Virus record (IMG/VR): IMGVR_UViG_2687453522_000004
Source: a virus
Lineage: Duplodnaviria; Heunggongvirae; Uroviricota; Caudoviricetes
DNA: 37,205 nucleotides
Strand: one strand, 5' to 3'
In this document: positions 1,743 to 26,030 of the stretch, piece by piece
Layout of the letters: every line of letters begins with the position of its first letter
Numbering within the stretch: position 1 is the stretch's first letter
Position numbers and translations under genes: made by a program
Notes under the pieces: model-generated
Told to the model about the DNA's origin: nothing
Database searches by the model: none
What the model saw: only the letters and a program-made list of their open reading frames with translations

Positions 1743-2906
1743 TCACTCATCATCTTCTGTTTCGTACTCCACATCAGAAAGCCTGACCTCAAGCTCTAAG
1801 GACGTCGTGAAGCCGCTATTATTCAGAAAATGTGTCACCTTAGTGATTGTCCAGTCCTGCTCGTCTATGACGCGCTTAAAGCCTGACACTTTAACCGGTG
1901 TTTCCGTGTAAATATCAGCCCGACCGGTAGCCAGGCTGATGGAGAACTCCGCAACGCCCCGTTGCAGTTTATCCCACTTCGCCTGAGCGGCGCGCATGGC
2001 CTGCGCTTTCGTGGCATATACCGTAGTCAGGGCAAAAACATTGTCAGCCTCACCTGCCATGTATTCACCTTCGCGCGCTTCCGGTACTTTTGGCGCTTTC
2101 TTCTGCGTGACCGGTTTCGCTTTCGGGTGCTCCAGTGCGCGCAGGTGTTTCTCTTTCTTTTTGCGTTTCAGTTTTACCTTCTGCTTTTGCGGCTTCGGGT
2201 CTTTGGTGTGTAACCACTTTGCCGTTACGCCGGTGTAGGCTCCACGGTCAGCAATCGCAAAATGATGGCGGTCACCGTCGCTGCGGGTGATGGTGACCTG
2301 CGGGATTTTTTTACCGCTGGCCGTCACCCCCTGCCCCGCTTTGAGAAACAGCAGTTTTCCCATTTTTACCGACACCTCACCGCCGTTGCGTTCTGCAAGA
2401 CGGGTCAGAAATTTCGCATCAGACTCCTGCGACTGGTCGATGTGCGGGATTTTAATTCCGGCCAGTGACGGAGCGACACTGGCTTCCAGCCTGTTACGGG
2501 AGGCTATCGCCTCAACAATCGCACCGAGCGTGGTGTCATGCCATGAGCCTTCACGGCGGGAATTGAGCGTCCCGCGAAAATCTGCACTCCGGGCGCGGAT
2601 GGTGACCACATCCGGTGCGCCCCGGTGTTCAACCTCATCAACGGTAAATTTCCCTTTGCATACCAGGGCAAAACCTTTCCAGCCGATATACACCGTCAGG
2701 ACAGCGCCACGAATCGGTAGTCCGACCTGCCCGTCGGCATCGTTCAGTTCAATATCAAGCTGGTCAGCCTCAAAGCCCCGGTTATCCGTCAGGGTCATGC
2801 TCATCAGACGGTCGCTGATATTGCCGGTAATATCCCTGCTGTCGAGCATCAGCATGTAATCCGGCGTCAGCGTACTGCCTGCATCAAATGTCAGTGCATC
2901 CAGCAT
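1743..2906 (-). CDS. D: P2 gpD-like tail protein (late control gene D)
   Basis: 387 aa, same length as the remembered P2 gpD and same position after U. Confidence 0.9.
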   Translation of the reverse strand: MLDALTFDAGSTLTPDYMLMLDSRDITGNISDRLMSMTLTDNRGFEADQLDIELNDADGQVGLPIRGAVLTVYIGWKGFALVCKGKFTVDEVEHRGAPDVVTIRARSADFRGTLNSRREGSWHDTTLGAIVEAIASRNRLEASVAPSLAGIKIPHIDQSQESDAKFLTRLAERNGGEVSVKMGKLLFLKAGQGVTASGKKIPQVTITRSDGDRHHFAIADRGAYTGVTAKWLHTKDPKPQKQKVKLKRKKKEKHLRALEHPKAKPVTQKKAPKVPEAREGEYMAGEADNVFALTTVYATKAQAMRAAQAKWDKLQRGVAEFSISLATGRADIYTETPVKVSGFKRVIDEQDWTITKVTHFLNNSGFTTSLELEVRLSDVEYETEDDE

Positions 2907-3385
2907 TATCCCGCCCCCGTCATACCCGTGAATTTAGTCGCCATACTGCCAGCCTTACCGATGAGCGATTCCGCCTGTTTACCGATATCGCCATAAAGCG
3001 CGGCCAGTGATTCATCAACGCGGGTGAGCGACAGCGTAAAATCAATTTTCCGGGGTGTGCCGTCTGCAAAGAAAATACTCCCTGTTTCACTCACCTTGCT
3101 GATGACATACATGCCGTAAATCATGCCGGTGCCATCCAGCAACGGCCACGCCCGCCCCTCCTCTGCCATCAGCCTGAGCGTGGTCATCGTCAGCTTGCCG
3201 CCGGTCAGTTCGGGATAAAGCACACCGGCAAGCGTGATGTTTTCCTCACCCACACCGAGAAACTGAAAAGCGTCCCGTTTACCGATACGGGAATTTGACG
3301 GCCAGCGATAATCTGATTCACGCTGCATGGTCTGGTGTGGCAGCGTCTGGCGCATAAAAACAAACATACCTAACGCGAGCATCAT
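2906..3385 (-). CDS. U: P2 gpU-like tail protein
   Basis: 159 aa; start overlaps the D stop (ATGA); between T and D as in P2. Confidence 0.88.
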   Translation of the reverse strand: MMLALGMFVFMRQTLPHQTMQRESDYRWPSNSRIGKRDAFQFLGVGEENITLAGVLYPELTGGKLTMTTLRLMAEEGRAWPLLDGTGMIYGMYVISKVSETGSIFFADGTPRKIDFTLSLTRVDESLAALYGDIGKQAESLIGKAGSMATKFTGMTGAG

Positions 3386-8104: not shown

Positions 8105-8673
8105 CTATTTGTCCCGGTTGGCTAAGGGATGACACAATTTATTTTTTGTCACTGAGGCGGGGAATTTTTTATAGAGCGTGGACAGGCCAATATCAAAAAT
8201 CAGTGCCACGCGTTGACGTGATTCCCCTGCAGCCAGCAACCGCCCGGCCTGCTCCCACTCACTCGCGGTGAGTTTCGGACGTCTGCCACCAATACGACCT
8301 TTGGCTCTGGCCGCCTCCAGTCCGGCGCGTGTCCGCTCGACAATGAGTTCTCGCTCCATTTCAGCCAGGGCACCCATCACATGAAAGAAAAAACGCCCCA
8401 TCGGCGTGCTGGTATCAATGGCATCCGTCAGGCTGCGAAAATTAATGCCGCGTTCGCGCAGCTCCTCAACCAGAATGACCAGATGCCGCATACTACGCCC
8501 CAGCCGGTCCAGCTTCCAGACTACCAGAGTGTCACCTTCCGATAATGTTCTGAGCAGTTTTTTCAGCCCCGGCCTGTCGGACTTCGTGCCGCTGATTTTA
8601 TCCTCAAAAATCAGCTCACATCCTGCGCACTCCAGCGCGTTACGCTGCAATTCCGTGTTCTGGTCATTTGTTG
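8105..8673 (-). pseudogene. Serine DNA invertase (Pin/Gin/Hin/Cin family), C-terminal fragment separated from its start by an IS66-family insertion
   Basis: Translation ...LQRNALECAGCELIFEDKISGTKSDRPGLKKLL...GDTLVVWKLDRLGRS...MGRFFFHVMGALAEMERE... is resolvase/invertase-like with a C-terminal HTH. Reading upstream in frame runs into the IS end instead of the MLIGYVRVS N-terminus. Confidence 0.88.
8666..8673. repeat. Target-site duplication ATTTGTTG, left copy (IS66-family insertion)
   Basis: Exact 8-bp direct repeat also present at 11129..11136 directly flanking the IS ends. Confidence 0.85.
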
Positions 8674-8714
8674 GTAAGCGTGCAGCAAGAACCGTATTGA
8701 CGGGGATGTGTTAT

Positions 8715-10250
8715 TCAGTCGGCAGTGCTACGCGCCAGGGGGAGCAGTTCGCCGACCCGGTTTATCGGCCAGTCGGCTATGACGTCAAGGACATAGCGGA
8801 GGTAGCTTTCTGGCTCCACTCCGTTCAGTTTGCACGTCCCGATCAGGCTGTACAGCAGCGCTCCCCGCTCTCCTCCATGATCCGAACCGAAGAACAGGTA
8901 GTTTTTGCGGCCCAGACTGACCATCCGCAACGCATTTTCAGCGATGTTATTGTCCGCCTCAGCCCAGCCATCATCTGCATAGTACGTCAGCGCCGGCCAC
9001 TGGTTCAGGGCGTATGCGAACGCTTTCGCCAGTTCTGAGTGTCGCGACAGGGTTTTCATCTTTTCACGCAGCCAGCTTTCCAGGGATTTCAGCAGCGGTT
9101 TCGTTTTCAACTGACGTTCGGCAAGGCGCTGCTCCGCCGTCATTCCCCTTATCTCTGCCTCGATGGCGTACAGTTCGCCGATCCGTTTCAGCGCTTCCTC
9201 CGTCAGGGCTGACGGGGTGCGAACGTGCACATCGTGGATTTTACGGCGGGCGTGAGCCCAACAGGCGGCTTCCGTTATCCGGCCATCCCGGTACAGCTCG
9301 TTGAACCCGGCGTATGCATCCGCCTGCAGTACACCACTGAACCCCGCAAGATGGGTCTGCGGATGGATGCCTTTTCTGTCCGGGCTGTAAGCGAACCACA
9401 CCGCCGGCGCCAGCGTTGACCCGGCGTTACGGTCGTCACGAACGTAGGTCCATAACCGCCCGGTCTTCGTTTTCTTATTGCCTGGCAACAGCACCGGGAC
9501 AGGCGTGTCATCAGCATGGAGCTTACCGTCAGTCAGCACATAGTCCTGAAGCGCTTCTTCCAGCGGTGACAGTAGCCGGCAGCATGCATCCACCCAGCCC
9601 GACAGCAGTGAACGACTCAGCTCCACGCCCTGGCGGCCGTACATTTCAGACTGGCGGTACAGCGGGGTGTGCTCTGCATACTTTGAGATCAGCACGCGGG
9701 CCAGCAGCCCCGGTCCTGCGATACCCCGCTCGATGGGCCGTGAAGGCGCGGGGGCCTGCACGATGGCATCGCACTGAGTACAGGCATGCTTTTCACGTAC
9801 AGTCCGGATAACCCGGAAGGCGCTGCGCATCAGCTCCAGCTGTTCGGCGGCATCCTCACCCAGATAGCTCAGCGAGCCTCCACATTCCGGGCAGCATGAC
9901 GCTGCCGGCAGCAGCCGTTTTTCATCGCGGGGGAGTGATTCGGGGAACGGTTTGCGGGTGCGGGTTTGACGCAGCGGGCGCTGCACGGCCGGGTCGTCAA
10001 CCCGACCGGTAAGGGTATCACTTTCTTTCTGAAGTGCCTTCAGGTCAGCTTCCATCTGTGCGATACGACGGGAGACTTTTTCCGAGCGGCTGCCGAAGTT
10101 CATCCGGCGCAGCTTATCCAGCTGTGCCTGCAGATGGTCTATTTCGCGTTCACGCTCGTTCAGCTTTTCCTGCAGGGCACGGTTCAGCGCCTCCTGTTCG
10201 GCAAGGAGACGTTTCAGTGCATTGATATCGTCAGGAAGTGAGCTGCTCAT
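8715..10250 (-). CDS. tnpC: IS66-family transposase TnpC
   Basis: 511-aa ORF with N-terminal coiled coil/leucine zipper, CxxC zinc-finger motifs (CCPECGG...CTQCD) and a DDE-type core, typical of IS66 TnpC. Confidence 0.88.
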
Positions 10251-10298
10251 ACCGGGTATATTACCAGGCTCATTCAGCGTCGACCAGGATAAAGAGGC

Positions 10299-10646
10299 TT
10301 ACAACATAGTCAGGGACGTAAGCAGTCTTTTAGGCTGCCGCCAGTCGATACCTTCCAGCAGCATCGCCAGCTGTGCCGGTGTGAGGAACACTTTGCCATC
10401 CCGGGCTGACGGCCAGGCGAAGCGGCCGCGCTCCAGCCGTTTGGTCAGCAGACACAGTCCATCGCCGGTAGACCAGAGGAGCTTTACCTGACTGCCATTA
10501 CGCCCACGGAAGATAAAAACGTGACCTGACATCGGATCGTCTTTCAGCGTCGTCTGCACCTTTGCCGCCAGGCCGTTGAAGCCGTTTCTCATATCGGTGA
10601 TGCCAGCGACCAGCCAGATCTTTGTCCCTGATGGTAATGGGATCAA
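10299..10646 (-). CDS. tnpB: IS66-family TnpB (Orf2)
   Basis: 115-aa ORF MIPLPSGTKIWLVAGITDMRNGFNGLAAKV..., typical IS66 Orf2. Confidence 0.85.
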   Translation of the reverse strand: MIPLPSGTKIWLVAGITDMRNGFNGLAAKVQTTLKDDPMSGHVFIFRGRNGSQVKLLWSTGDGLCLLTKRLERGRFAWPSARDGKVFLTPAQLAMLLEGIDWRQPKRLLTSLTML

Positions 10647-11047
10647 CGTTTGAGCTCCCGTATCAGCAGGTTCAGGATATTTTCGCTGATGGCACCATTC
10701 AGACGGAGTGATCCGTGCCGGAACGTCACTTCACAGCTGATATTGAGTGATTCAGGTGTCGCAGCAGCTACAGGTTGTGACCGGGGGGAGGTTGTAGGGA
10801 CAACATCTTCGGCATCAAGTGTTATCGGGAGCAGCTCAGGCACGTTGTTTTCTGTTGTTGAAGGAGGACGTAGTTTTCCTTCGCGCCAGTACTGGCGCCA
10901 CTTGAACAGCAAATTATCGTTGATCCCATGCTCACGAGCGAGTTGCGCTACGGAGATCTCTGGTCGATGCGAGAGTTCAACCATTTTGATTTTGAACTCA
11001 ACGGGATAATTAGGGCTTTTTTTACGCACTGCGGTTAATGATTTCAT
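10643..11047 (-). CDS. tnpA: IS66-family TnpA (HTH accessory protein)
   Basis: 134-aa ORF, first gene of the IS66 triad, overlapping tnpB. Confidence 0.8.
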   Translation of the reverse strand: MKSLTAVRKKSPNYPVEFKIKMVELSHRPEISVAQLAREHGINDNLLFKWRQYWREGKLRPPSTTENNVPELLPITLDAEDVVPTTSPRSQPVAAATPESLNISCEVTFRHGSLRLNGAISENILNLLIRELKR

Positions 11048-11128
11048 GGATTGCGTCCACCATATTTGGTGTCCACTATTCTCTCAGGAATTTCAGGATC
11101 TGCCAGACGGTGCTGAGACGACGCTTAC

Positions 11129-11136
11129 ATTTGTTG
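11129..11136. repeat. Target-site duplication ATTTGTTG, right copy (IS66-family insertion)
   Basis: Exact 8-bp direct repeat of 8666..8673. Confidence 0.85.
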
Positions 11137-11161
11137 ACACGCGTACATAGCCAATAAGCAT
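11129..11161 (-). pseudogene. Serine DNA invertase, N-terminal fragment (MLIGYVRVSTN) with Shine-Dalgarno GGGGG, cut off by the IS66-family insertion
   Basis: On the minus strand, ATG CTT ATT GGC TAT GTA CGC GTG TCA ACA AAT then runs into the IS terminal repeat. Joining it to 8665..8105 restores a 197-codon invertase. Confidence 0.85.
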
Positions 11162-11188
11162 GAGCATCCCCCTGAATAAAAACCGGAG

Positions 11189-11704
11189 ATGATGCCACTT
11201 GCCCGTTATCTCTGCATTTTCATAAACGTTGGTTTGGGAGAAGGCTCTGTATTACCCGTTGGTGTGCCTGTTCCGTGGCCTTCAGCCACACTGCCAACAG
11301 GCTGGCTGAAATGCAACGGGGCGGCATTTTCTGCTGAAGAATACCCGGAACTGGCAAAGGCTTACCCGACAAATATATTGCCTGATTTACGTGGTGAATT
11401 TATTCGTGGCTGGGATGACGGGCGCGGAGTGGACAGTAGCCGGACGTTGTTGTCGTGGCAAAAAGGCTCTTATCTGGTTCAGGAAGCCAATATATCACCC
11501 GACAGCGTGGTGCAGTTTTCGGTAAACGACATTGCCCTGCTGGGATGGGATAAAACTGAAACCAATTCAGATATTCTCAGAGCGAAAAGTATACCTACAG
11601 AACATATCTGGAACCCCGTTCCAGTGGGAGCCTGGGGGATTCAGTATCTGGGTTATGCAAGGCCACGTAACATTGCATTTAACTACATCGTAAGGGCTGC
11701 ATGA
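11189..11704 (+). CDS. Alternative tail-fibre C-terminal segment (Sv'-like), currently not joined to the constant part; would fuse to H after inversion
   Basis: The open frame passes through the crossover site, encoding ...FINVGLGEGSVLPVGVPVPWPSATLPTGWLKCNGAAFSAEEYPELAKAYP..., a remembered Mu/P1-type fibre tip motif. There is no convincing independent start or promoter. A dedicated assembly gene follows. Confidence 0.7.
   Translation: MMPLARYLCIFINVGLGEGSVLPVGVPVPWPSATLPTGWLKCNGAAFSAEEYPELAKAYPTNILPDLRGEFIRGWDDGRGVDSSRTLLSWQKGSYLVQEANISPDSVVQFSVNDIALLGWDKTETNSDILRAKSIPTEHIWNPVPVGAWGIQYLGYARPRNIAFNYIVRAA
11219..11244 (+). repeat. Putative invertase crossover site (gix/hix/pix-like 26-bp imperfect palindrome) bounding the invertible tail-fibre segment on the invertase side
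   Basis: TTTTCATAAACGTTGGTTTGGGAGAA resembles the remembered Hin/Gin consensus TTnnnnnAAACC-NN-GGTTTnnnnnAA. Its 14 inner bases TTGGTTTGGGAGAA are identical in inverted orientation to the site at 13168..13193. Confidence 0.7.
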
Positions 11705-12321
11705 TGAGCAAGAAAACCATGACTACAGCGGTGCTGAATGAATCGCGGCTGGCAACAGTTGCAGGAGAGGTTGTTGTCCACAGCTACGATAATAAGACGC
11801 GGGAATACCTTTGCACGTCAACCGAATATCTGGCTGTGGGCGTTGGCCTTCCTGCACATTCATGCACTGATGCCCCCGGGGAAAGGCGGGCTGGTTATGC
11901 AATTTGCCGCACAGCCGACCTGACCGCGTGGGAGTACGTGCCGGACCATCGGGGTGAGACAGTCTATAACACAGAAACCCGTGAGGCAGCAGAAATCACC
12001 ACTCCGGGGGATTACCCTGAAAACACAACCACTGTCGCCCCGTTAACGCCATACGATGAATGGGATGGTGAGAAATGGGTGACAGATACTGAGGCACAGC
12101 ATAGCGCCGCAGTAGGCGCGGCAGAAACACAGCGACAGTCACTGATTGATACTGCAATGGCTTCCATTAATCTGATTCAACTGAAATTGCAGGCCGGGCG
12201 AAAACTGACGCAGACAGAAACCACCCGGCTTAACGTCGTGCTGGATTACATTGACGCGGTGACGGTAACTGATACCAGCACCGCGCCGGATATCAATTGG
12301 CCTGCTCCCCCGGAGGCGTAG
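11701..12321 (+). CDS. Tail fibre assembly protein (U'-like) paired with the alternative fibre segment
   Basis: 206 aa; start overlaps the Sv' stop (ATGA); converges on and overlaps the other assembly gene by 29 bp. Confidence 0.75.
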   Translation: MMSKKTMTTAVLNESRLATVAGEVVVHSYDNKTREYLCTSTEYLAVGVGLPAHSCTDAPGERRAGYAICRTADLTAWEYVPDHRGETVYNTETREAAEITTPGDYPENTTTVAPLTPYDEWDGEKWVTDTEAQHSAAVGAAETQRQSLIDTAMASINLIQLKLQAGRKLTQTETTRLNVVLDYIDAVTVTDTSTAPDINWPAPPEA

Positions 12322-12739
12322 GCCAGACGGGATTTGATGTATCAACGCGCATCAGTAAGACCCGATATTTTTTCCATTCAGACAACGCGGCGGTTTCTTC
12401 TGCCGTCGCGATTTCCGCATCAAAAGCATCCTGTCTCCAGACTATTTCCTTATCAGCCATTGAACGCAATACCGTTCTTTTCTGTTCAGCCTGAATAATC
12501 TGTTGTTCAGCGGAGAGTGGCGGGATATCAATCCATGCAGGATTACCATTTTTATCAGCCCCCAGCGTTTTGCCTTCTGGCGCTACGCCTGTGTAAATTG
12601 CTATTGTTTCATCATCAACATCAACGCCATTTTCAGGCCATGAACCGGCGCTGATATATACCTCTTTTAGTGCTTTCGGATAGAAAGAGCCTTTATAAAA
12701 TTTATTCATTCTTAATACCCCAGCGCGATAAAACAACAA
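12293..12739 (-). CDS. Tail fibre assembly protein (P2 G / Mu U-like) for the currently expressed fibre variant
   Basis: 148-aa ORF immediately downstream of the fibre gene; C-terminus ...SEWKKYRVLLMRVDTSNPVWPTPP resembles the conserved assembly-chaperone C-terminus. Confidence 0.8.
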   Translation of the reverse strand: MLFYRAGVLRMNKFYKGSFYPKALKEVYISAGSWPENGVDVDDETIAIYTGVAPEGKTLGADKNGNPAWIDIPPLSAEQQIIQAEQKRTVLRSMADKEIVWRQDAFDAEIATAEETAALSEWKKYRVLLMRVDTSNPVWPTPPGEQAN

Positions 12740-14007
12740 TCTTCGGTGCCCTCTCCGGATGGCGACCAGTTCTGAATACTGATATGCGTTCTGCTGGCAA
12801 TACGCACATTCATCGCGGCATTGTAGCCAGATGTTCCACGGTTTCCGGTCGCAAACAAGCCTGCATAGGGAAAAGCAAATGGTAAGGCATATCCAGCATC
12901 AGCTCCCTTTTGTGTTGCCACCGTTCCCCACTGCAACATAAGTTTCACCGGGTTTCCTGTCGTCGCAATGCATGGAATGTAGATGTAGCCATTACCTGAC
13001 ATCATTGACCTGAAGCTGTCTAAATCCAGTAACTTCGAGGCATTATCTGCTCCAACATCTCGTGTTGCAGCGGTCCCTAACTGGAGCGCATTTCGGAAGG
13101 CTGATACATCAGAAATATCAGATCCATTAGCCGATTTCTGCATAGCTCTGGAGGCTCTATTTATCGTTTCTCCCAAACCAAGGTATGCGAGAAGGCCGGC
13201 AACATCCTTTCCGCTCAAATGAGTCAGCGTCTCATCCAGTGGCTGCTTACCTGACAGCGCATTGTTAATAGTGGTGCTGAATTTCGGGTCATTGTTAATG
13301 GCTGCGGCAATTTCTTTCAGTGTGTCCAGCGTGGCTGGCGCGCCGTTAATCAGAGCGGTAATAGCGGCCTGAACAAACTCAGTGGTCGCAATCCGCGTGG
13401 TGTTATTTCCTGCGGCAGGCGTCGGGGCTTTTGGTTCTCCGGTAAATGTCGGATTATGTTTCTGTGCATACTGGGTATGAGGATCCTGTGCGGCAATGTG
13501 GTTTCTCATCTGGTCATCCACATACAGCCTTAATTCCAGGACTTCATCATCCACATATTTACGGGTCGCCAGTACCACCGACGGGTCGATTTTCAGCGTG
13601 ATGGCTTCGATATTCGTGACAACCAGAATCATGCGGATAGTCTGGGTACGACCACTGCCTTCCTGTAACTGCGGTTTGTACGTTTCCGGGCAGTTGGCCA
13701 CCGCAATGAGTACGCCTTCATCATCATAAAGCCCAATCTCACGGATCCAGAATCCGCCCTCGTTCTCAGGGATGATTTGCTCCGCAATAATCTGGCTCTG
13801 GTTGTTCGGGTCAACACTCAGAAGATTCAGCGGTGCAATGCGTTTCTGATTAATCAGTTTTGTCTGTGCCGGGTCTGGTGTCGGCAAGACACCATTCGCA
13901 TCACCAACGGCCATTTGCGTCAGATTCAGCTTACTGCCAAGCATCGTCGCGTTAGCCAGCCGTGCTGCGCCCTGATTAGTCAGAATGGCGTAGTATTTCA
14001 CTGTCAT
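12712..14007 (-). CDS. H: Tail fibre protein (gpH-like): constant N-terminal part 13194..14007 plus variable C-terminal part 12712..13167 inside the invertible segment
   Basis: 431 aa; N-terminus aligns with remembered P2 H motifs (MAVGD, GGFWxRExGLYDD, LIAVAN, EGSGR, YVDD, NDPxFxTTxNALxGKQP). Confidence 0.9.
   Translation of the reverse strand: MTVKYYAILTNQGAARLANATMLGSKLNLTQMAVGDANGVLPTPDPAQTKLINQKRIAPLNLLSVDPNNQSQIIAEQIIPENEGGFWIREIGLYDDEGVLIAVANCPETYKPQLQEGSGRTQTIRMILVVTNIEAITLKIDPSVVLATRKYVDDEVLELRLYVDDQMRNHIAAQDPHTQYAQKHNPTFTGEPKAPTPAAGNNTTRIATTEFVQAAITALINGAPATLDTLKEIAAAINNDPKFSTTINNALSGKQPLDETLTHLSGKDVAGLLAYLGLGETINRASRAMQKSANGSDISDVSAFRNALQLGTAATRDVGADNASKLLDLDSFRSMMSGNGYIYIPCIATTGNPVKLMLQWGTVATQKGADAGYALPFAFPYAGLFATGNRGTSGYNAAMNVRIASRTHISIQNWSPSGEGTEDCCFIALGY
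13168..13193 (-). repeat. Putative invertase crossover site inside the tail-fibre gene at the constant/variable junction
   Basis: Plus strand TTCTCCCAAACCAAGGTATGCGAGAA; its reverse complement shares 14/14 inner bases with the site at 11219..11244; it encodes the fibre motif AYLGLGE. Confidence 0.7.
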
Positions 14008-14615
14008 GCGTTTACTCTCAGGTTATCAATTAAATGAATGGCCGAGGCCGGGAAATAATCCCCTCCGACAATAATGGCCTCCGGGGTGTAGGGATAAACC
14101 GTCAGGGCGTCGCCGTGATAGCATCCCGCACCGGCAAAAATGTTGCCGGTTGTACTTAAACTGATAGCCAGTCCCGTCAGATGGCGGCTTGCAGGTTTTG
14201 CATCAGCAACGAGACGCTCCAGCTCCTGATACATTTCCTCGGTAATACCCTGCTCAAGCACGCCAACAACGATGCGGAACGTCCCCGGTTCCTCGTTGAG
14301 CTGCCACCACTCCCTCACCTCAATCAGATAGCCGAGCGGCTCCACCACACGCCGGATTGCGCCTATAGTGCCCTTATGGCAGTGAATGAAATACGCATCG
14401 CGGATAACAGCGCGTTTTGTCGCTTCCGGCCACTTATCATCCCAGCGGTCAACCGAAAATGACCACGCCAGCCACGACAGCAGATTTGCCGGACAGGTAT
14501 CCGGGTTCCACAGTTCACGAATACTGACCGGCGTTTTTTCAATTTCCGCACAGGCTTTTGCGGCGGCAACTTCAAGCGGTGATGAGCCGGTCGGCAGCAG
14601 GCGCGAATCACTCAT
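14004..14615 (-). CDS. I: Baseplate protein gpI-like
   Basis: 203-aa ORF between J and H, stop overlapping the H start; the true start may be an internal Met (P2 gpI is remembered as shorter). Confidence 0.85.
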   Translation of the reverse strand: MSDSRLLPTGSSPLEVAAAKACAEIEKTPVSIRELWNPDTCPANLLSWLAWSFSVDRWDDKWPEATKRAVIRDAYFIHCHKGTIGAIRRVVEPLGYLIEVREWWQLNEEPGTFRIVVGVLEQGITEEMYQELERLVADAKPASRHLTGLAISLSTTGNIFAGAGCYHGDALTVYPYTPEAIIVGGDYFPASAIHLIDNLRVNA

Positions 14616-15516
14616 CCGAGCCTCCGGTCACGACGCTGTATTCGGTGCAGAAAGACGCCTGCGTACTGTTGAGCACAATGTCGGCCAGTGGTGCGGCCAG
14701 CTCGACACGCTGCACGCCTTCCACATGCAAAGCGGCATAAATGGCAGACAGACGGATGTCGCGCCCCAGCCGGTGCTGTGCCGTGATATACGCTTCCAGT
14801 TTTTTCACGGCGGCAGCGCGAATGGGTTCGCTTTCGGGACCAGGGTAAAGGTAAAGCGTGGCGTTTATCTGGTATTCAACGATGGCGGCGGACTGCACGG
14901 TCACGCGGTCGGCCACCGGTCTGACGTCCTCGCCATTCAGGGCGTTACGCACCACGGCCAGCAGGTCTTCGGATGCGACACCGTTATTTTCACGTGACAG
15001 CACGGAGATGGTGACGCAGGCCGGAGACGGACTGGTGACAGAGATATCCGCGACACGCCCGTCGGCACTGCGACCATGATACTGATAGGCTCCCACCGAC
15101 CCGGCGACGCTTAAGCCCTCAAATGACTGCTGAATACGCAGACGATAATCGGTGTCAGACTCCATCACTGCCGGTGTCGGCGGGATGGTCGAATCATCTG
15201 CCGGGGTGATAGTCAGGCGTGTGGTGTTGTAATTGGCACCAATCACATCAAGGTCATTACCGGCTGCACAGGCCAGCATCACCGCCCGTGCGGCCTCATT
15301 CACACGCTGACGCCAGATAAGCTCACGATAAGCATTTTCCTCCAGCAGTTTGACGAGAGGCTCAGATTCCAGCGTCAGGGTACGGGCGACCGCCTCCTGC
15401 TGGTCTTCCGGGTAAAGGGAAATCAGTGTCGCCTTGCGTTCGGCAAGAATGGTTTCAAAGTCCAGCTCCTCGACCACATCCGGTGCGGGTAGCTGGTTCA
15501 GGTCGATAATCGGCAT
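14608..15516 (-). CDS. J: Baseplate assembly protein gpJ-like
   Basis: 302 aa; length and position as in P2. Confidence 0.9.
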   Translation of the reverse strand: MPIIDLNQLPAPDVVEELDFETILAERKATLISLYPEDQQEAVARTLTLESEPLVKLLEENAYRELIWRQRVNEAARAVMLACAAGNDLDVIGANYNTTRLTITPADDSTIPPTPAVMESDTDYRLRIQQSFEGLSVAGSVGAYQYHGRSADGRVADISVTSPSPACVTISVLSRENNGVASEDLLAVVRNALNGEDVRPVADRVTVQSAAIVEYQINATLYLYPGPESEPIRAAAVKKLEAYITAQHRLGRDIRLSAIYAALHVEGVQRVELAAPLADIVLNSTQASFCTEYSVVTGGSDE

Positions 15517-15520
15517 GGTT

Positions 15521-15868
15521 TCAACTCACAGGGATGGTTAACGAAAGTGGCTGGCCGGTGTCGTTGTGCTGACCGGTTAACGTGACCGTCATTCGCCCCT
15601 CAAAACTGCGCTCAGTGGTGACAGATGACAGGGTGACGCGGGGTTCCCATTTCAGCACCGCCATGTAACAGGCGACCTTAATCTGCAACTCAAGCGCCGG
15701 GGTCTGCGGCTGGTCAATCATTGATGCCAGCAACGAGCCGTAATCACGACGCATCACCCGTGAGCCGACCGGTGTGCGCAGGATATCGCCGATACTCTGG
15801 CTGATATGCTCAAGGTCAGTGACAGTCAGGCCATCACTGCGATTCATTCCGAGATAACGTGCTGTCAT
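15521..15868 (-). CDS. W: Baseplate wedge protein gpW-like (gp25-like)
   Basis: 115 aa; length and position as in P2. Confidence 0.9.
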   Translation of the reverse strand: MTARYLGMNRSDGLTVTDLEHISQSIGDILRTPVGSRVMRRDYGSLLASMIDQPQTPALELQIKVACYMAVLKWEPRVTLSSVTTERSFEGRMTVTLTGQHNDTGQPLSLTIPVS

Positions 15869-16500
15869 AGAGGACTCCCGGTTGTGCCGCCGCTGTCTCC
15901 TGGGTGTTTATGGGTATGCAGTACCTTACCGTTTGATGAGAGTTCACCGCCGGTGTGTTCAATGTTGCCGCGCATCGTCCCGCCCTTCTGCACTTCCAGC
16001 GTGCCGGTGATCAGCTTGTTGGTGCAGACCACCTCCGGTGTGTCCAGGGTGACGCGGGTTGATGCTTTCACCATGACCACAGGCACCCTGGCAGTAACAG
16101 AATCAGAAGCCGTCACGCTGGCCGTTTTAATTCCGCTTACCGTGAGTGCACTAGTTTCGGGTTCATACTCAATCACCGCCCCGTCAGGGAAACGGATATG
16201 CAGGGCATCCGCCGACGCAGACGGCGCGGGGCTATCGCCGGAATAAATCCCCGGCAGAACGAACGCCGTGTCGAGTTCACCACCCACGGCCAGAATCAGC
16301 ACCTGTTCCCCCACGGAAGGTGCCCACCATGTGCGCGAACGCCCGGCACGACAGGTCAGCCACTGAAGCCAGTCGGTGCACATGCCGCCGGTCTGCACAC
16401 GGCAGCGACCGGCATTAAGGTCGGTTTCGACGATAATGCCGGTGCGGATCATGTTGCGCAGTGCGCGCGCGAGTTCCTGAATATTTGCGAGAGTGTTCAT
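15865..16500 (-). CDS. V: Baseplate central spike protein gpV-like
   Basis: 211 aa; length and position as in P2. Confidence 0.9.
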   Translation of the reverse strand: MNTLANIQELARALRNMIRTGIIVETDLNAGRCRVQTGGMCTDWLQWLTCRAGRSRTWWAPSVGEQVLILAVGGELDTAFVLPGIYSGDSPAPSASADALHIRFPDGAVIEYEPETSALTVSGIKTASVTASDSVTARVPVVMVKASTRVTLDTPEVVCTNKLITGTLEVQKGGTMRGNIEHTGGELSSNGKVLHTHKHPGDSGGTTGSPL

Positions 16501-16566
16501 AACGGGAAGGATGCCGCCGGGTCATACCGGCGGCAATGTGACGATGAGGTGTCAGGAATGGCACAA

Positions 16567-17019
16567 CTAACGGTCGAGGTGAGCCAGGATAATCTCTTCA
16601 ATCATCTGCACATCCTCACCGGTAAAGCCGAGCAGGGGACGCGCCGGATAATCAATTTTCTTACCGTCTTTCCGGGTTTCTTCCGACAGACCAAACTGAT
16701 GCACACTGGCGATTTTCGGTGACTTTCCGCCGTAAAATTCCATTGATGCCTGCTCCGGGCTGGCGCGGATATGCAAAAAACGATTGGTGATAAGTTTCGC
16801 AAACATTTTTCGCTTAACACGACCAGTCTTTTTTCTGGCGCTCTGCTGCTGGCGTGGCACGTAGGGTGTGCCGTCCGGGGCTTTCTGTGCCATCACCCGA
16901 CGCTGCTGACTCTGCCGCAGACGTTTCGCCAGTTCGGCACTCAGCCGCCGACGCCCTGACGGTGACAGCGATTCAGTCAGTCCGGCCAGCCGGTCTTCAA
17001 AACGCTTAAACTCATTCAT
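16567..17019 (-). CDS. S: Tail completion protein gpS-like
   Basis: 150 aa; length and position as in P2. Confidence 0.88.
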   Translation of the reverse strand: MNEFKRFEDRLAGLTESLSPSGRRRLSAELAKRLRQSQQRRVMAQKAPDGTPYVPRQQQSARKKTGRVKRKMFAKLITNRFLHIRASPEQASMEFYGGKSPKIASVHQFGLSEETRKDGKKIDYPARPLLGFTGEDVQMIEEIILAHLDR

Positions 17020-17479
17020 CCCACTTGCTCACCAGTTCGCCATTGATATACAGCTCCATCGGGCGGGTAACCGGCTCCGGCGGCGGGGGTTCCGGGATAT
17101 TCTTCACATGCAGTGCGCCGTCCACCTCACTGACCAGCGTGCGCTCGGTCAGCATCAGGCTGATGCTGATATCAAAGCTGCTGTCATTGTTGATGTCTGC
17201 ATAAAACGTGAAGCCCTTTTTCTGGCCTTCGTCGGTGGTCATGATGTCGGACTGATTTTCCCGCAGCCACGCCAGCACCGGCACAATGAGCAGGTCAAAA
17301 TCACCGGTAAAGTCGGTCACAATCACATTGAGCGTGTAACGCTTTTCGAATGACAGCGACGTCGCCAGTGTGGAGGCAATACTCCCGTTATCCACGAATA
17401 TCCGCAGCATATCGGGGTTAGTTTTCAGCACCGTGACGGCATCAGTCAGCGCCCTGCGCAGGCTGTCGGGTTTGAGCAT
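17012..17479 (-). CDS. R: Tail completion protein gpR-like
   Basis: 155 aa; length and position as in P2. Confidence 0.88.
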   Translation of the reverse strand: MLKPDSLRRALTDAVTVLKTNPDMLRIFVDNGSIASTLATSLSFEKRYTLNVIVTDFTGDFDLLIVPVLAWLRENQSDIMTTDEGQKKGFTFYADINNDSSFDISISLMLTERTLVSEVDGALHVKNIPEPPPPEPVTRPMELYINGELVSKWDE

Positions 17480-17732
17480 CGTTTTCGTCCTGACAGTGTT
17501 TAATCATTTTTACCTGGCTGGCACAGCGTGCCAGCGCGTTCTCAAGCTGCCGGATATCAGCACTTAAATCGCCGTTCGTCTCCGGGTCACTGCCCGGCAT
17601 CGGGCAAAGGCTCACTTTCGGGCAGGCGTTGTGGACAATCACTGGCGTCGGCGCAGGCCGGGCGCTGGTGCAACCGGCGCACAGCATCAGGCAGGCCAGC
17701 GCCGTACCAGCGGCGAAAATCTTCGTTTTCAT
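17442..17732 (-). CDS. lysC: LysC-like outer-membrane lipoprotein spanin (Rz1 equivalent), starting inside lysB in another frame
   Basis: 96-aa ORF with lipoprotein signal MKTKIFAAGTALACLMLCAGC and a Pro-rich mature region; nested in the lysB 3' region and overlapping the R start. Confidence 0.7.
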   Translation of the reverse strand: MKTKIFAAGTALACLMLCAGCTSARPAPTPVIVHNACPKVSLCPMPGSDPETNGDLSADIRQLENALARCASQVKMIKHCQDENDAQTRQPAQGAD

Positions 17733-18012
17733 TCAGTAACCTCGTGATGGTTTTCTCGCGCTGTGCTTCACGCTTCGCGGCGTTCTCCAGTTCCTGACGC
17801 AGTGCCACCTGCGCCAGCTCGTTTTTGTCTGCCCTGGTGAGGGCAACATGAAGCTGATTTTTCAGCATGGTGATGGTCGTCTGCTGCCCGCTGGCGACGC
17901 TGTTCGCCCTGTCCAGCGAGTAGCGCAGTCTGGCGTTTTCATGCTTCACCAGAAACAGCCCCGCCACCGCCAGCGATAACAACACGACCAGTGCAATCAT
18001 CAGCTTTGACAT
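17587..18012 (-). CDS. lysB: LysB-like inner-membrane spanin (Rz equivalent)
   Basis: 141 aa with an N-terminal transmembrane helix followed by a charged coiled-coil region. Confidence 0.85.
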   Translation of the reverse strand: MSKLMIALVVLLSLAVAGLFLVKHENARLRYSLDRANSVASGQQTTITMLKNQLHVALTRADKNELAQVALRQELENAAKREAQREKTITRLLNENEDFRRWYGAGLPDAVRRLHQRPACADASDCPQRLPESEPLPDAGQ

Positions 18013-18425
18013 AGTTCCCGCCCCTCAAGACGCTGACGGCAGGCCGTGCGTATCAGCCGGAAAAACAGCGACGCCACGAGATAAATCAGCGCAGTAAAAA
18101 TCCACCCGGCGGCAACCAGCGAGATAAACGTCGCCACCATCACTACCAGAGCCGCCGCCCGTCTGCACCACGGCACCGACTGCAAAAACAGCGACGTGAC
18201 AATCTTCACGGCCAGCGATTCCGGTGGCAGCTCCCGCCCGTAGCGTTCAAGTACATACTCCGTGGCATACACGCCGACACCACCGGCAACCACACAAATA
18301 ATCATCGCCAGAATCGCCCAGGCAGCGACAAAACTGACGGCCACGCTCTGCGGGTAAATCAGGGACAGTGCCAGCATCAGCGCCAGCGACACGTTCAGCA
18401 TCAGTGAAAGGGATAATTTCTTCAT
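18000..18425 (-). CDS. lysA: LysA-like lysis-timing membrane protein
   Basis: 141 aa with several hydrophobic helices; between the endolysin and lysB. Confidence 0.85.
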   Translation of the reverse strand: MKKLSLSLMLNVSLALMLALSLIYPQSVAVSFVAAWAILAMIICVVAGGVGVYATEYVLERYGRELPPESLAVKIVTSLFLQSVPWCRRAAALVVMVATFISLVAAGWIFTALIYLVASLFFRLIRTACRQRLEGRELCQS

Positions 18426-18439
18426 GGTGTTTACTCCGT

Positions 18440-18937
18440 TTAAGCCGGTACGCCGCCAGCGGTACGCCAGACGGTGACCAGTTTTTCCAGTGAATGCTCA
18501 CGCTGACCGTAACCGGCACCCGGCAGGGACGCCCAGATATTGCGACAGCGTGAAATGGCGCACTCAATGCGTCCCGCCCGGATGTCATCCAGTGCACCGC
18601 GTTCGCGGATCAACTGAATGGCGAGTCTGTCCTGTGACAACGGACTGAAATCCGGCAGGGCAAGCTGTTTGCGGTAGTGCGGCCAGAACAGGTAAAGCTG
18701 CTGATAGCGACCGGAGGCCGTGGACTTTTCACCGCGACGGTTAAACACCTTCGCCGGTCGGCCATGCGCGAACGGGTGGTCACTGTAGTCGGTGAAAATT
18801 TCCGGCTTCCCGTCCAGTCCGGTGACTATCACGTCATAGCCCCGGTTTTTCGTCAGCGGATGATTCGCCGTCCCTTCGGACACGGCCAGCATGTCGAGAA
18901 AGGCGGCGATATTCTGATGCGTGTTAATAACCGGCAT
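18440..18937 (-). CDS. K: Endolysin (gpK-like lysozyme)
   Basis: 165 aa, immediately downstream of the holin. Confidence 0.9.
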   Translation of the reverse strand: MPVINTHQNIAAFLDMLAVSEGTANHPLTKNRGYDVIVTGLDGKPEIFTDYSDHPFAHGRPAKVFNRRGEKSTASGRYQQLYLFWPHYRKQLALPDFSPLSQDRLAIQLIRERGALDDIRAGRIECAISRCRNIWASLPGAGYGQREHSLEKLVTVWRTAGGVPA

Positions 18938-19218
18938 TACGGTTTCCCCCTGCCCTTAAAGCGACGCTGAATGGCAATCTCAATCACCTGATAACCGGCG
19001 ATACCCAGCATGGAACCGATGCCGCACACCGCAGGCAGTGACAGGTCAGGAAACTGCACCAGAACAACACCGGCAACCATCGAGACAAAACCACCGAGCA
19101 ACATGCGCCCGATAAACAGACGCGGGGTGATGGGTTCACCACCGGCAAGCACCTTGCCGACAACAATCAGCACCCCAATCATGAAAAGCGACAGGACGCT
19201 TTTTTCTTCTGCTGTCAT
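18937..19218 (-). CDS. Y: Holin (gpY-like)
   Basis: 93 aa with transmembrane helices and a charged C-terminus (RRFKGRGKP); directly precedes the endolysin. Confidence 0.88.
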   Translation of the reverse strand: MTAEEKSVLSLFMIGVLIVVGKVLAGGEPITPRLFIGRMLLGGFVSMVAGVVLVQFPDLSLPAVCGIGSMLGIAGYQVIEIAIQRRFKGRGKP

Positions 19219-19221
19219 GCG

Positions 19222-19425
19222 TTACTCCCACAGATTGACAGTTTCAGCCACGGGCGCGGTCTGAACGTCGGGCAGTTCGACGGCGGTGCCGTGTGGCAGC
19301 ACCGCACCCAGTTCAGCCAGTCCCGAATTTGCGGCGAGCACGGTCTCAACCACGCCCTCAGTGCGCCCGTAATACCGGACACAAATGGCGTCGAGCGTGT
19401 CGCCCTGTAGCGCAAAGGTCTTCAT
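19222..19425 (-). CDS. X: Tail protein gpX-like (67 aa; the ORF track extends upstream to 19494)
   Basis: Conserved start MKTFALQGDTLDAICVRYYGRTEG; the ATG overlaps the L stop. Confidence 0.85.
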   Translation of the reverse strand: MKTFALQGDTLDAICVRYYGRTEGVVETVLAANSGLAELGAVLPHGTAVELPDVQTAPVAETVNLWE

Positions 19426-19934
19426 CAGATTTGACTCACGATGCAGCGCGGCTTGTCCTGGATACGCGCCACTGCCCAGCGCATATCCCGCCACAGCTTA
19501 TCAATAGTGCTGTCTATGCTGTCGGCCTTCTTGTCGCCTTTTGCACTGGCATCCACACCGCGATAACGCTCATAAAGCGACGCGGTCGCCATCGCACACA
19601 CGGCGCGCTCGTAGTAAAAAACTTTGATGCTTTCACCGTCGATATCGTCCGCCGGGACGTCCGCCAGACGCGTAAAACCGGCGGCAATTTTCTGTTCACG
19701 GTACTCGTACAGCTCCGCATTCGTTTCAGCCATGCCTGACTTGATGGCCTCACGCAGACGGGCGGGGGCGACGGTCTGCTCAAGGCGCATACGTTCCCGG
19801 ACGCGCTTCGGGTCGATATCGGGAAAAAAGAACGTGTTTTTAATCACCGGCTCGTCGCCTGCCGGTTGCGGGATGACCACCGTACCCTCACCGGACACGG
19901 GAGCCTCCTTTCGCGGAATAATCAGCGTCATCAT
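19425..19934 (-). CDS. L: Capsid completion protein gpL-like (169 aa from MMTLIIPR; the ORF track extends to 19994)
   Basis: Conserved N-terminus; follows M. Confidence 0.85.
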   Translation of the reverse strand: MMTLIIPRKEAPVSGEGTVVIPQPAGDEPVIKNTFFFPDIDPKRVRERMRLEQTVAPARLREAIKSGMAETNAELYEYREQKIAAGFTRLADVPADDIDGESIKVFYYERAVCAMATASLYERYRGVDASAKGDKKADSIDSTIDKLWRDMRWAVARIQDKPRCIVSQI

Positions 19935-20033
19935 GACTACCTCTGAAAAGTCGGGCGGTGGACGCCGGTGCAGTGTCAGGTGATTCACCCTCACTGACCG
20001 GCGTGCCGCCCTGGCGCGGGGCGCATTCGGTTG

Positions 20034-20777
20034 TTAACTGGCTTTCTTTTTCGGGCGTCCACGTTTTGCCGGTGTCACGCTCCGGGTCTTACGCGTGGCA
20101 CGGGTGGCCGCTTTGGGTTGCTGCTCCGGCTTCGGTTTCAGCTCCCGCTCCAGTCGTTCAATCTCTTTTTTGACGCCTGCCTGACAGTCGAGCCGGGTCG
20201 CACGTTGCAGGTGAGCCAGCGCACCGGCGGCATCACCACCGTCACGCAGAAACAGACCGGTGATTTTGTGCAGCTTTGCGCGCACTTCATCAGGCATGTC
20301 AGCCGTGGCGGTCAGTTCAAGGGTCTCCGTCAGCAGGCGGGTATCCACGGATTCACCGGCAGCGTGAGCGCGTATGGCCGCAAGCGCCACCTCCTCGGTG
20401 AACATGTACGGCGGAGTGCGGCGGTGTTTACCCGGCATGGTCAGACCGTACTTCAGGGCATAACGGGCAATCTCCAGCGCACCGGCAATATCGCCGGTAT
20501 CCAGACGCCACAGCATGACCGTCATCAGAATGTCATCCTGTGCACCTTTGCCCTGCTCCAGCACGCCGTTCACCCACGGCAACCAGAACGGCAGCAGTTC
20601 GCGTTTTTTCGCGGCCTTCAGCTCTTTTGAATAAATCGCTTTCAGTGTGCGCTGATCTGCGGCGAGCTTAACCAGCATCTGCTCATAGACAGTTGCATGT
20701 CGCAGCGGGGCGGCTTCCCGCTGCGCGGTCATCGCTGCCGAGACCCGCATCATGTGGCGCTGTGCGGGACTCGTCAT
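20034..20777 (-). CDS. M: Terminase small (endonuclease) subunit gpM-like
   Basis: 247 aa; basic C-terminal tail; follows N. Confidence 0.9.
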   Translation of the reverse strand: MTSPAQRHMMRVSAAMTAQREAAPLRHATVYEQMLVKLAADQRTLKAIYSKELKAAKKRELLPFWLPWVNGVLEQGKGAQDDILMTVMLWRLDTGDIAGALEIARYALKYGLTMPGKHRRTPPYMFTEEVALAAIRAHAAGESVDTRLLTETLELTATADMPDEVRAKLHKITGLFLRDGGDAAGALAHLQRATRLDCQAGVKKEIERLERELKPKPEQQPKAATRATRKTRSVTPAKRGRPKKKAS

Positions 20778-20780
20778 CGG

Positions 20781-21854
20781 TTACGCTCCCGGCTCTGCGG
20801 TCGCCTTAGCCGGTGTGGAGAAATCACCGACCTTAATTTTTTCCACCAGACAACCGGCGGCGTAGTCTTCCACCACGTAATCAATGTTCATTGACTCGTA
20901 GTTCTCCACGCGGTCGAGTTTCGGGTTTTCCACAATCACGCGGCGATGGCTGTCATCCATGTAGTAGATGGACAGGTTTTCCAGCTTCGTGATGAGCATC
21001 GCATCCGCCGGGAAGTACGGGACGCGTACCGCTGGCAGGTTACCGATGCGTTTCTGGCTGATGATGACGTCAGCGGCCAGCATTTCGCTGTTGTCCTGCT
21101 CCTTGTTAACGATGGGGAAATACTTGTCCGCCAGTAACTGACGCCCCACAATCACCACAAGGTCAGGGTCTTCCTGATACCACGGCTCAATCAGGTTGTT
21201 GGTCGCATCCATCACCAGTGCATCAAGGCTGGCATAATCACCGCCCTTACCCACGCGGATAACCTCAGAGGTGGTGCGGCCTTCCTCGTCAGTGACCTTA
21301 CTCATCACGCGCGCCGGGGCTTCATTGCGGTATTTCTGCAGCCAGCCGACCGCCACATCCTGCAGCATCGGGTTACTGCTGCGGTCAGAGGTTTCGGCAC
21401 GCTTCACACCGTTAAAACCGGCCATGATTAAATCAAGAGCCTGACGTTTGATAATGGCGTTACGGACACGGAGCTGGAAATCCTGATAACGCGCCCACAG
21501 GTCAAGCGTTTTGTAGCGGATATAAAAATCGAAGTTAATCTGGTCGCATTCGTACTTGTTTGACGCCAGCTTCGAGAAGTCCTTCGGCTGACGCTCGGTG
21601 CCACCGGCGGTGTCGGTGGTGCTGGCGATGGAGCCGGTGACACCAATACCAATTTTTTCCCCTTTCATTTCGCTGACCGGCACAATGTTGATGCGGGTCA
21701 GAAAGTCAGAGGACTCCTGCATGGTGTTCATCAGGGTCTGGGTGACCGACGGTTCAACGGTGAATTTTTTCGACACATCACCGGCGTCGATGCCGTTCAG
21801 TTCGGCAACACGGGACAGGTAGGCATTAAATTTAAAGCGGGTTTCCTGGCGCAT
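20781..21854 (-). CDS. N: Major capsid protein gpN-like
   Basis: 357 aa; follows O. Confidence 0.92.
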   Translation of the reverse strand: MRQETRFKFNAYLSRVAELNGIDAGDVSKKFTVEPSVTQTLMNTMQESSDFLTRINIVPVSEMKGEKIGIGVTGSIASTTDTAGGTERQPKDFSKLASNKYECDQINFDFYIRYKTLDLWARYQDFQLRVRNAIIKRQALDLIMAGFNGVKRAETSDRSSNPMLQDVAVGWLQKYRNEAPARVMSKVTDEEGRTTSEVIRVGKGGDYASLDALVMDATNNLIEPWYQEDPDLVVIVGRQLLADKYFPIVNKEQDNSEMLAADVIISQKRIGNLPAVRVPYFPADAMLITKLENLSIYYMDDSHRRVIVENPKLDRVENYESMNIDYVVEDYAAGCLVEKIKVGDFSTPAKATAEPGA

Positions 21855-21912
21855 AGTTTTTCCTGAAATTAAGGGTTAATCGTGAAGGTTTTCCCGGACT
21901 GACTGACGCCGG

Positions 21913-22767: not shown

Positions 22768-22940
22768 TGTCAGGAGTCCTGAATAGTGATTAGAGGAGTC
22801 ACATGTCGGCATCAGTTTCCCGACGATGCGCATCCTCCGCCATCAGTCCCGGATGGCTTATCACTGACACAACAGCACCTTAGCGAATCGCGGGGCGCGA
22901 CTCAGTAGCCTTGCCGTGTATTCATCACGGCGAGGTATTC

Positions 22941-25747: not shown

Positions 25748-25752
25748 ACATC

Positions 25753-25935: not shown

Positions 25936-26030
25936 CGCCCGCTTCATGGGGCGGTTTTGATGCAACCTCGTATTAAAGGGGACACCATAGCCCATCAAAC
26001 CTCAGACTTCGCCCCTAGCTAACGTTTATG

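Follow-up and report, generated by a model that had tools for sequence, protein, structure and literature searches.

An ISEc22 copy in the tail-fibre invertase gene of a P2-like Escherichia coli prophage

The interrupted invertase gene

The window analyzed here, a 37,205-nucleotide stretch of DNA (IMG/VR record IMGVR_UViG_2687453522_000004), belongs to a P2-like E. coli prophage whose integration site adjoins fieF and whose invertase system is flanked by the tail-sheath and fibre genes. The invertase gene lies on the minus strand and is split at codons 9-11 by a 2455-bp copy of the insertion sequence (IS) ISEc22 (8674-11128, minus strand). On one side remains a 5' remnant of codons 1-11 (11129-11161, minus strand; MLIGYVRVSTN), which includes the codon for the catalytic Ser9, and on the other the 3' part of the gene, which begins at base 2 of codon 9 and extends to the stop (coding nt 26-594; 8105-8673, minus strand). 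The element is bounded by two copies of the 8-bp target-site duplication ATTTGTTG (8666-8673 and 11129-11136), and exact agreement of an 8-mer at two fixed positions would arise by chance with a probability of 1.5e-5; a third copy of the octamer lies within the window at 24050. Read as CAACAAAT, the duplicated octamer spans bases 2-3 of codon 9 (Ser) together with codons 10-11. The initial annotation had described an IS66-family element with an exact 8-bp duplication at the catalytic-serine codons, and its coordinates are exact apart from the end of its span (8105-11167), which falls a few bases past the ATG at 11161.

The identity of the element was further confirmed by its three consecutive IS66-type genes, all on the minus strand: tnpA (10643-11047, 134 aa; Pfam HTH_Tnp_1, E=9e-12), tnpB (10299-10646, 115 aa; TnpB_IS66, E=1.6e-38) and tnpC, a 511-aa ORF encoding the DDE transposase (8715-10250; DDE_Tnp_IS66, E=5e-107). 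The tnpC product also contains zf-IS66, LZ_Tnp_IS66 and DDE_Tnp_IS66_C domains, and the gene is labeled "frameshifted" by PGAP in every identical copy inspected. The element begins with GTAAGCGT and finishes with ACGCTTAC; its terminal inverted repeats are imperfect and start with GTAAGCG, reading inward as GTAAGCGT at both ends with further partial matches. Over its full 2455 bp it matches, at 100% identity, elements that carry the ISEc22 annotation in many genomes and plasmids of E. coli, and more than 1000 records hold ISEc22 copies at >=99% identity. The tnpA-tnpB-tnpC layout, the GTAAGCG-type ends and the 8-bp target duplication are all those of ISEc22; there is no difference between the two, and this is one more copy of which only the location is particular. 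The direct repeats flank true IS ends, as the full-length identity indicates, and the ends are genuine because two identical copies elsewhere end in the same way and carry 8-bp duplications of their own (GTATGATG and GAATATGC). Its presence elsewhere in identical form also shows that the element is mobile.

Excision in silico of the element and one repeat restores a 197-codon ORF on the minus strand that begins with MLIGYVRVSTNDQ, with its ATG at 11161 and its stop ending at 8105. An uninterrupted allele 100% identical to this reconstruction is found in NZ_CM129037.1 and in another IMG/VR locus (L014). The earlier reading of the restored ORF as a Pin-like invertase is borne out by the protein, which aligns collinearly, residue by residue, with Mu Gin (PDB 3UJ3 and 4M6F; residues 1-182, E ~1e-94), its Ser9 corresponding to Gin residue 9, and which contains the Pfam domains Resolvase (PF00239, E=3e-52) and HTH_7 (PF02796, E=5e-13). 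It differs from Gin in a 15-residue C-terminal extension and is 81% identical to P1 Cin. A catalytic domain with a serine near residue 9-10 and a C-terminal helix-turn-helix place the reconstructed ORF, as predicted from its translation, in the serine invertase class. Related invertases belong to P2-like phages, at 96-99% identity in pro483 and S164 (Escherichia) and MET_P1_103_31 (Salmonella) and at 86% in Fels-2, where tail-fibre genes are annotated beside the invertase; unlike in the window prophage, the invertase genes of all four are intact.

As it stands in the window, the 3' part has lost Ser9, and the frame leaving the IS reads ...ARLPTNDQ. In PGAP/RefSeq this part is called a 200-aa "recombinase family protein", with its start placed within the IS. 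No enzyme is made because the IS splits the gene, and an active invertase cannot be produced with the Ser9-bearing codons 1-11 cut off from the gene body.

The invertible fibre segment

Two 26-bp crossover sites bracket an invertible segment of about 1.95 kb (11230-13180). One lies beside the invertase gene (11217-11242, central TT at 11229-11230) and the other within the tail-fibre gene (13168-13193, central AA at 13180-13181); they are in inverted orientation with matching central dinucleotides, and the site pattern matches twice in the window and never in 100 shuffles. Of 71 relatives, 63 have a similar site 67-68 nt upstream of the ATG. The two sites have 14-17 identical bases in common, so that an inversion breakpoint cannot be placed at the central dinucleotide itself. 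Within the segment are a silent fibre C-terminal cassette with a Collar domain (ending at 11704, plus strand), a tail-fibre assembly gene (11701-12321, plus strand), a second assembly gene (12293-12739, minus strand) and the expressed fibre C-terminus. The form expressed in the window orientation is a 431-aa fibre protein with a Gp53-like C-terminus (12712-14007, minus strand), and the flipped form is annotated in the genome of EJN001 as a 433-aa protein. Both crossover sites and both fibre cassettes remain intact.

This arrangement resembles the Gin (Mu), Cin (P1), Pin (e14) and Hin (Salmonella) systems in its 26-bp inverted sites with matching central dinucleotides, in the position of a crossover site 68 bp upstream of the ATG and in the alternative fibre C-termini and assembly genes carried by the segment. 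Unlike those systems, the invertase gene is split by an IS and is located in a P2-like prophage.

The recombinational enhancer

The enhancer of the P1 system is annotated at cin nt 19-90, and the invertase gene is collinear with cin over this region, which suggests the same enhancer position in the 5' coding region as for cin. Based on the P1 record, the eLife text and motif matches, candidate Fis cores of the form G-N13-C were placed at coding nt 22-36 (GTGTCAACAAATGAC in the intact gene) and nt 71-85, the latter meeting a stricter consensus. Their centres are 49 bp apart, compared with a family spacing of about 47-48 bp, and 97 bp separate the centre of the proximal core from that of the crossover site; the corresponding figures for hin are 47 bp between the two Fis sites and about 100 bp to the crossover site (PMC3798978). 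In agreement with this placement, synonymous diversity across 59 relatives is reduced in codons 7-30, with an entropy of 0.59 against 0.93 in the remainder of the gene (p=0.0016); a comparison with P1 cin as a single pair (11/21 vs 44/120) was too weak alone, hence the use of the 59 relatives.

By homology to P1 cin, the IS very probably falls inside this enhancer, within the crossover-proximal Fis site. The predicted part that stays beside the crossover site comprises coding nt 19-33 (11129-11143, minus strand) and has most of the proximal Fis core, and the part displaced by 2.46 kb with the gene body comprises nt 26-90 (8609-8673, minus strand), including the distal Fis consensus site (8614-8628). 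The initial annotation had the gene start moving about 2.5 kb away from the body, where the enhancer of this family normally sits; the enhancer appears not to have been simply displaced from the gene start, since the IS would sit within it. Considering this homology and the published Hin data, a wild-type invertase supplied in trans should work only poorly on the split enhancer. As the body side retains nt 26-90, a weakened enhancer might still act from 2.5 kb away on the nearer site.

Orientation of the segment among E. coli genomes

A search of 5426 complete E. coli genomes found the same IS junction in 81. These 81 genomes are related, so that the following are counts of genomes and not of events: 59 are oriented as in the window, 3 contain the exact product of inversion (junction 100% identical) and 19 fit neither form. 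All three inspected genomes of the last kind have a deletion (11283-29829) next to another element, ISEc12, by which the segment was lost; some descendants later lost 18.5 kb, the segment included. One record in the IS-bearing group is literally named ST167, and records of the clone often have NDM-type names.

When the window is inverted in silico, the IS-bearing, flipped genome of EJN001 runs collinear with it for 22,081 bp with a single mismatch, and the inversion breakpoints of this genome lie within the two crossover sites. The uninterrupted form of the same prophage occurs at the same chromosomal site, and uninterrupted, 100% identical alleles at this locus are found in both orientations, that of the window in 600055 and the inverted one in 720632. 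Among the matches listed, uninterrupted loci at this chromosomal position are oriented about 5:4. Both orientations therefore occur in nature, for uninterrupted and IS-bearing loci alike. A count of 1095 vs 88 records was considered as a baseline orientation ratio and proved unusable, since the window-orientation cassette is common to many other prophages.

These data bear on the proposal of the initial annotation that the segment is probably locked in its present orientation. The claim is too strong in the face of three IS-bearing genomes with a precise inversion product, although the 59:3 skew fits much reduced flipping. We regard the fibre switch as nearly, not absolutely, frozen.

Origin of the flipped genomes

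We consider it likely that a single ISEc22 insertion damaged both invertase and enhancer, that the switch is nearly frozen with rare flips in trans, and that all of this belongs to the decay of the prophage. One ISEc22 transposition into the invertase gene, in the ancestor of a clonal E. coli group, would have parted codons 1-11 (with Ser9) from the gene body, leaving no active invertase, and would have fallen inside the Fis-dependent enhancer (coding nt 19-90), within its crossover-proximal Fis site. Most descendants would have retained the window orientation while in a few the segment inverted precisely at the sites, presumably by the action in trans of a serine invertase that was either transient or has gone unrecognized. 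The insertion would then be one step in the decay of an already non-viable prophage.

The initial annotation allowed for another invertase acting in trans, and for this no candidate is visible in two of the flipped genomes, EJN001 and EBJ001, where no other Gin- or PinQ-type invertase is detectable at the DNA level. In both, megablast returned the invertase body in single copy only, and the sole second match in a distant blastn search was a 168-bp pinH pseudogene fragment. A helper suggested by matches in at least two places per chromosome in the distant blastn was accordingly rejected, the extra place in EJN001 being this fragment. A pinQ probe gave no added match in either genome, and a synteny search found Qin (pinQ) and Rac (pinR) to be absent from EJN001. 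EJN001 and EBJ001 each carry one IncX3 plasmid (pNDM5), of the same size in both and annotated with the same resolvase protein. This resolvase family protein is the only plasmid serine recombinase and was rejected as a helper, the EJN001 copy being 24% identical to the invertase.

The lack of an invertase candidate in EJN001 or EBJ001, together with an enhancer that is probably broken, would agree with a complete lock, under which the three flipped genomes arose from an independent ISEc22 insertion at the same site, into a prophage oriented the other way, or from recombination importing the segment or an IS-bearing allele from a relative; the 600055 and 720632 alleles indicate that donor DNA of the other orientation circulates. 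We nevertheless find this unlikely. For an independent insertion, an IS 100% identical to this one would have had to land in the same octamer and in the same orientation. The duplications of the three identical copies (ATTTGTTG, GTATGATG and GAATATGC) show no strict target. Import is opposed by EJN001, where a single base in 22 kb departs from the window once the inversion is set aside, giving no sign of imported DNA.

Gin/Pin-family invertases can act on one another's sites. This exchangeability raises the opposite reading, in which the insertion has little functional effect and another invertase flips the segment freely in trans. Some IS-bearing genomes do have 3-4 invertase-like places in distant blastn, including the flipped 11899A_LBHALD, and trans action has a precedent in PinQ of Qin, which inverts the P segment of e14 (PMC12529663). 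The likeness is that of a prophage invertase flipping the segment of another prophage; PinQ, however, is 43% identical to the window invertase, pinQ-like DNA is absent from the flipped EJN001 and EBJ001, and the e14 enhancer is not known to be broken. Free flipping in trans is also hard to reconcile with a 59:3 skew in IS-bearing genomes against about 5:4 at the uninterrupted loci listed, with the pinH fragment as the only second match in most IS-bearing chromosomes, and with an IS very probably inside the enhancer, and we judge it very unlikely. That the flips arose by rare events of microhomology-mediated inversion or template switching between the 14-17 bases shared by the inverted sites is extremely improbable, for although the breakpoints can be placed only within these shared bases and no recombinase was found, use of exactly the invertase crossover sites would be a coincidence and other 12-20 nt inverted repeats nearby are unrearranged in the inspected genomes.

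Significance

The insertion is real, but ordinary as an example of IS-mediated decay; every part of it is known and annotated in RefSeq, and it changes nothing in the knowledge of invertases or IS66 elements. The prophage is defective in any case because ISEc12 splits its replication gene A, and there is no consequence for phage host range because the prophage is defective. In annotation, the RefSeq 200-aa "recombinase family protein" is a dead invertase and should be a pseudogene. We think it quite unlikely that precise inversion took place without a recognizable Gin/Pin- or PinQ-type gene or an intact enhancer; if true, inversion without a known invertase would suggest either an unrecognized recombinase acting in trans in these E. 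coli strains or a way of inverting the segment that does not need the enhancer. For tracing lineages, the fixed orientation and the later ISEc12 deletion make convenient markers. The locus also offers a natural double knock-out in a widespread clinical clone, with the catalytic serine removed and the enhancer very probably split, and from the 81 genomes one may estimate the flipping frequency of a Gin-type segment deprived of its own enzyme and enhancer.

The split invertase gene and its insertion element

The tail-fibre invertase gene of this P2-like prophage, read from the sequence on the minus strand at 8105-11161, is split by a 2455-bp element (8674-11128) with termini GTAAGCGT... and ...ACGCTTAC. 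The octamer ATTTGTTG lies on both sides of it (8666-8673 and 11129-11136) and occurs once more in the window, at 24050. The full 2455 bp match at 100% copies labelled "IS66-like element ISEc22" on many E. coli chromosomes and plasmids, and copies at ≥99% identity occur in 1072 records. All three element ORFs have IS66 family domains in Pfam (HTH_Tnp_1, TnpB_IS66 and DDE_Tnp_IS66), the last accompanied by zinc-finger, leucine-zipper and C-terminal modules. Two identical copies elsewhere, one in a cbrC-family gene and one next to yahK, share the exact end bases and have 8-bp duplications of their own (GTATGATG and GAATATGC). The ends of the element are thus true IS ends and the octamer is a true target duplication, as the initial annotation had proposed. 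The ISEc22 transposase gene (window 8711-10250) is flagged "frameshifted" by PGAP in every copy inspected (comparison loci L001 and L010-L013); these copies are 100% identical to one another and widely dispersed, and the flag reflects either a quirk of annotation or the element's normal state.

Removal of the element and one octamer in silico yields a 197-codon ORF beginning MLIGYVRVSTNDQNTELQRNAL, with its ATG at 11161 and a stop ending at 8105, in which the coding-strand octamer CAACAAAT supplies the last two bases of the Ser9 codon and all of codons 10 and 11. The product has Resolvase (E=3e-52) and HTH_7 domains in Pfam and aligns without gaps to Mu Gin residues 1-182 (PDB 3UJ3 and 4M6F; E ~1e-94), with Ser9 facing Gin residue 9. 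Identity is 81% with P1 Cin and 96-99% with invertases of P2-like phages such as pro483, S164 and MET_P1_103_31, and the intact allele is found at 100% identity in NZ_CM129037.1 and one IMG/VR contig. Judged by sequence, ISEc22 has interrupted a serine invertase of the Gin/Cin/Pin type, and the earlier description of a restored Pin-like invertase split at the Ser9 region stands. In the window as it is, the frame from the IS into the gene body reads ...ARLPTNDQ, replacing Ser9 and losing the YVRVS motif. PGAP treats this truncated gene as intact, calling a 200-aa "recombinase family protein" (WP_062914736.1; window 8105-8707, L001 9077-9679) whose start codon is inside the IS end; without the catalytic serine, it should be labelled a pseudogene.

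Segment orientation in IS-bearing genomes

The invertible segment (1.95 kb) offers the tail fibre two alternative C-termini, one Gp53-like and one with a Collar domain, and also holds two genes for tail-fibre assembly. It is bounded by 26-bp crossover sites inverted relative to one another, one near the invertase (11217-11242; TTTTCATAAACG TT GGTTTGGGAGAA) and one in the fibre gene (13168-13193; TTCTCCCAAACC AA GGTATGCGAGAA), which in the window orientation spans 12712-14007 (431 aa). The two sites agree exactly in their inner halves and central dinucleotides, and the site pattern had no matches in shuffled windows. Of 71 related loci, 63 have a crossover-type site at the spacing seen in the window, 67-68 nt before the invertase ATG.

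The identical IS/invertase junction is present in 81 of 5426 complete E. coli genomes, with 59 carrying the segment in the window orientation, three (EJN001, EBJ001 and 11899A_LBHALD) carrying, at 100% identity, exactly the inversion product predicted, and 19, by subtraction, showing neither; these counts represent related genomes and not independent events. When the window is inverted in silico between the sites, it matches the EJN001 locus collinearly across 22,081 bp, with one mismatch. Among the listed matches to the intact allele, prophages at this chromosomal position that lack the insertion show the two orientations at ~5:4, whereas the 59:3 skew fits a much reduced flipping rate. By far the most parsimonious account is that the IS inserted once; the segment must then have flipped precisely on one or more occasions after the invertase was destroyed. 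The proposal that the segment is probably locked therefore holds as reduced flipping, but not as a full lock.

In the three "neither" genomes inspected (strains ST167, 51008369SK1 and SCEC020007; loci L010, L095 and L096), an 18.5-kb deletion of window 11283-29829, abutting ISEc12, took out the invertible segment together with every gene for baseplate, lysis, head and terminase, leaving a segment remnant in the window orientation. This deletion probably accounts for the 19. The invertase body and other-end IS junction of 11899A_LBHALD (NZ_CP130447.1) are ~1 Mb apart (1,620,168 and 2,611,872), which suggests that the prophage was split by an extensive rearrangement of the chromosome between copies of ISEc22. 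Several assemblies, such as NZ_CP086338.1 (EJN001), appear rotated, with the record start in or beside the prophage and the invertase at ~20-23 kb, perhaps as an artefact of start-fixing software.

Decay of the prophage

The prophage adjoins fieF, with sheath, tube, tape measure, D and ogr on one side and I, J, W and V on the other. ISEc12 (IS21 family; about 29830-32400), whose istA (30681-32222) and istB (29920-30669) are both on the minus strand, splits the P2-type replication gene A. An N-terminal stretch of 470 aa survives at 32337-33749, and the prophage is therefore replication-defective. The terminase gene is also flagged frameshifted by PGAP in EJN001. The ISEc22 insertion is a further step in the decay of a cryptic, already defective prophage. 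Between the portal gene and gene A, the variable cargo position of P2-like phages, lies an 827-aa helicase-like protein (26119-28602, plus strand) with ResIII/DEAD and Helicase_C_2 domains, which may thus be a defence gene.

The insertion point and the predicted enhancer

The P1 record AF234172 annotates an "enhancer of Cin-mediated C-segment inversion" at cin coding nt 19-90, over which the window gene is collinear and very similar. A proximal Fis core (G-N13-C; GTGTCAACAAATGAC) is predicted at invertase nt 22-36, its center 97 bp from that of the neighboring crossover site, and a stricter Fis consensus is matched at nt 71-85. For hin, the proximal Fis site is ~100 bp from hixL and 47 bp from the other Fis site, enhancer shape is critical, and without Fis there are <0.001 inversions per molecule per minute (PMC3798978). 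Synonymous codon entropy among 59 distinct relatives is 0.59 in codons 7-30 vs 0.93 in the rest of the gene (Mann-Whitney p=0.0016), with the lowest diversity at nt 1-36 and nt 55-108, which is supportive only because the 59 sequences are related. Taken together, these features place ISEc22, which entered between nt 33 and 34, inside the predicted proximal Fis core. The crossover-site side retains nt 1-33, and the gene-body side, now 2.46 kb off, retains nt 26-90 minus the G at the core edge. We infer that ISEc22 breaks, or at least weakens, the predicted enhancer; the gene start was indeed displaced from the body by about 2.5 kb, as noted initially, and the enhancer itself was probably also hit.

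Candidate sources of the flipping activity

Another host invertase acting in trans had been suggested, and none was detected in EJN001 or EBJ001 by blastn and a pinQ probe. The invertase body is single-copy in IS-bearing chromosomes by megablast. Sensitive blastn finds one additional place, which in EJN001 proves to be a 168-bp piece of the pinH pseudogene without either end, and a third hit in 11899A_LBHALD. Qin and Rac, the K-12 prophages with pinQ and pinR, are absent from EJN001, and adding pinQ to the query gave no further match in EJN001 or EBJ001. Both genomes have a same-size IncX3 plasmid (46,161 bp) on which a resolvase is the sole serine recombinase; in the EJN001 copy it shares 24% identity with the invertase. 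K-12 PinQ (2623-3213 of its locus, L003) is only 43% identical to the window invertase, and the K-12 pinH fragment has 81% DNA identity over 140 nt; by these similarities, the chromosomal relic of this invertase type is pinH, not pinQ or pinR. Trans action between prophages has precedent in PinQ, which inverts the e14 P segment (PMC12529663). The likeliest flipping agent is either a helper that the strains no longer carry, such as a phage, a phage-plasmid or another prophage, or a recombinase too diverged for DNA-level searches to detect.

The finding is real, was correctly described and is ordinary, with all components known and annotated in RefSeq. What this work refines is the probable hit to the enhancer and the observation that "dead" switches have still flipped, if rarely.
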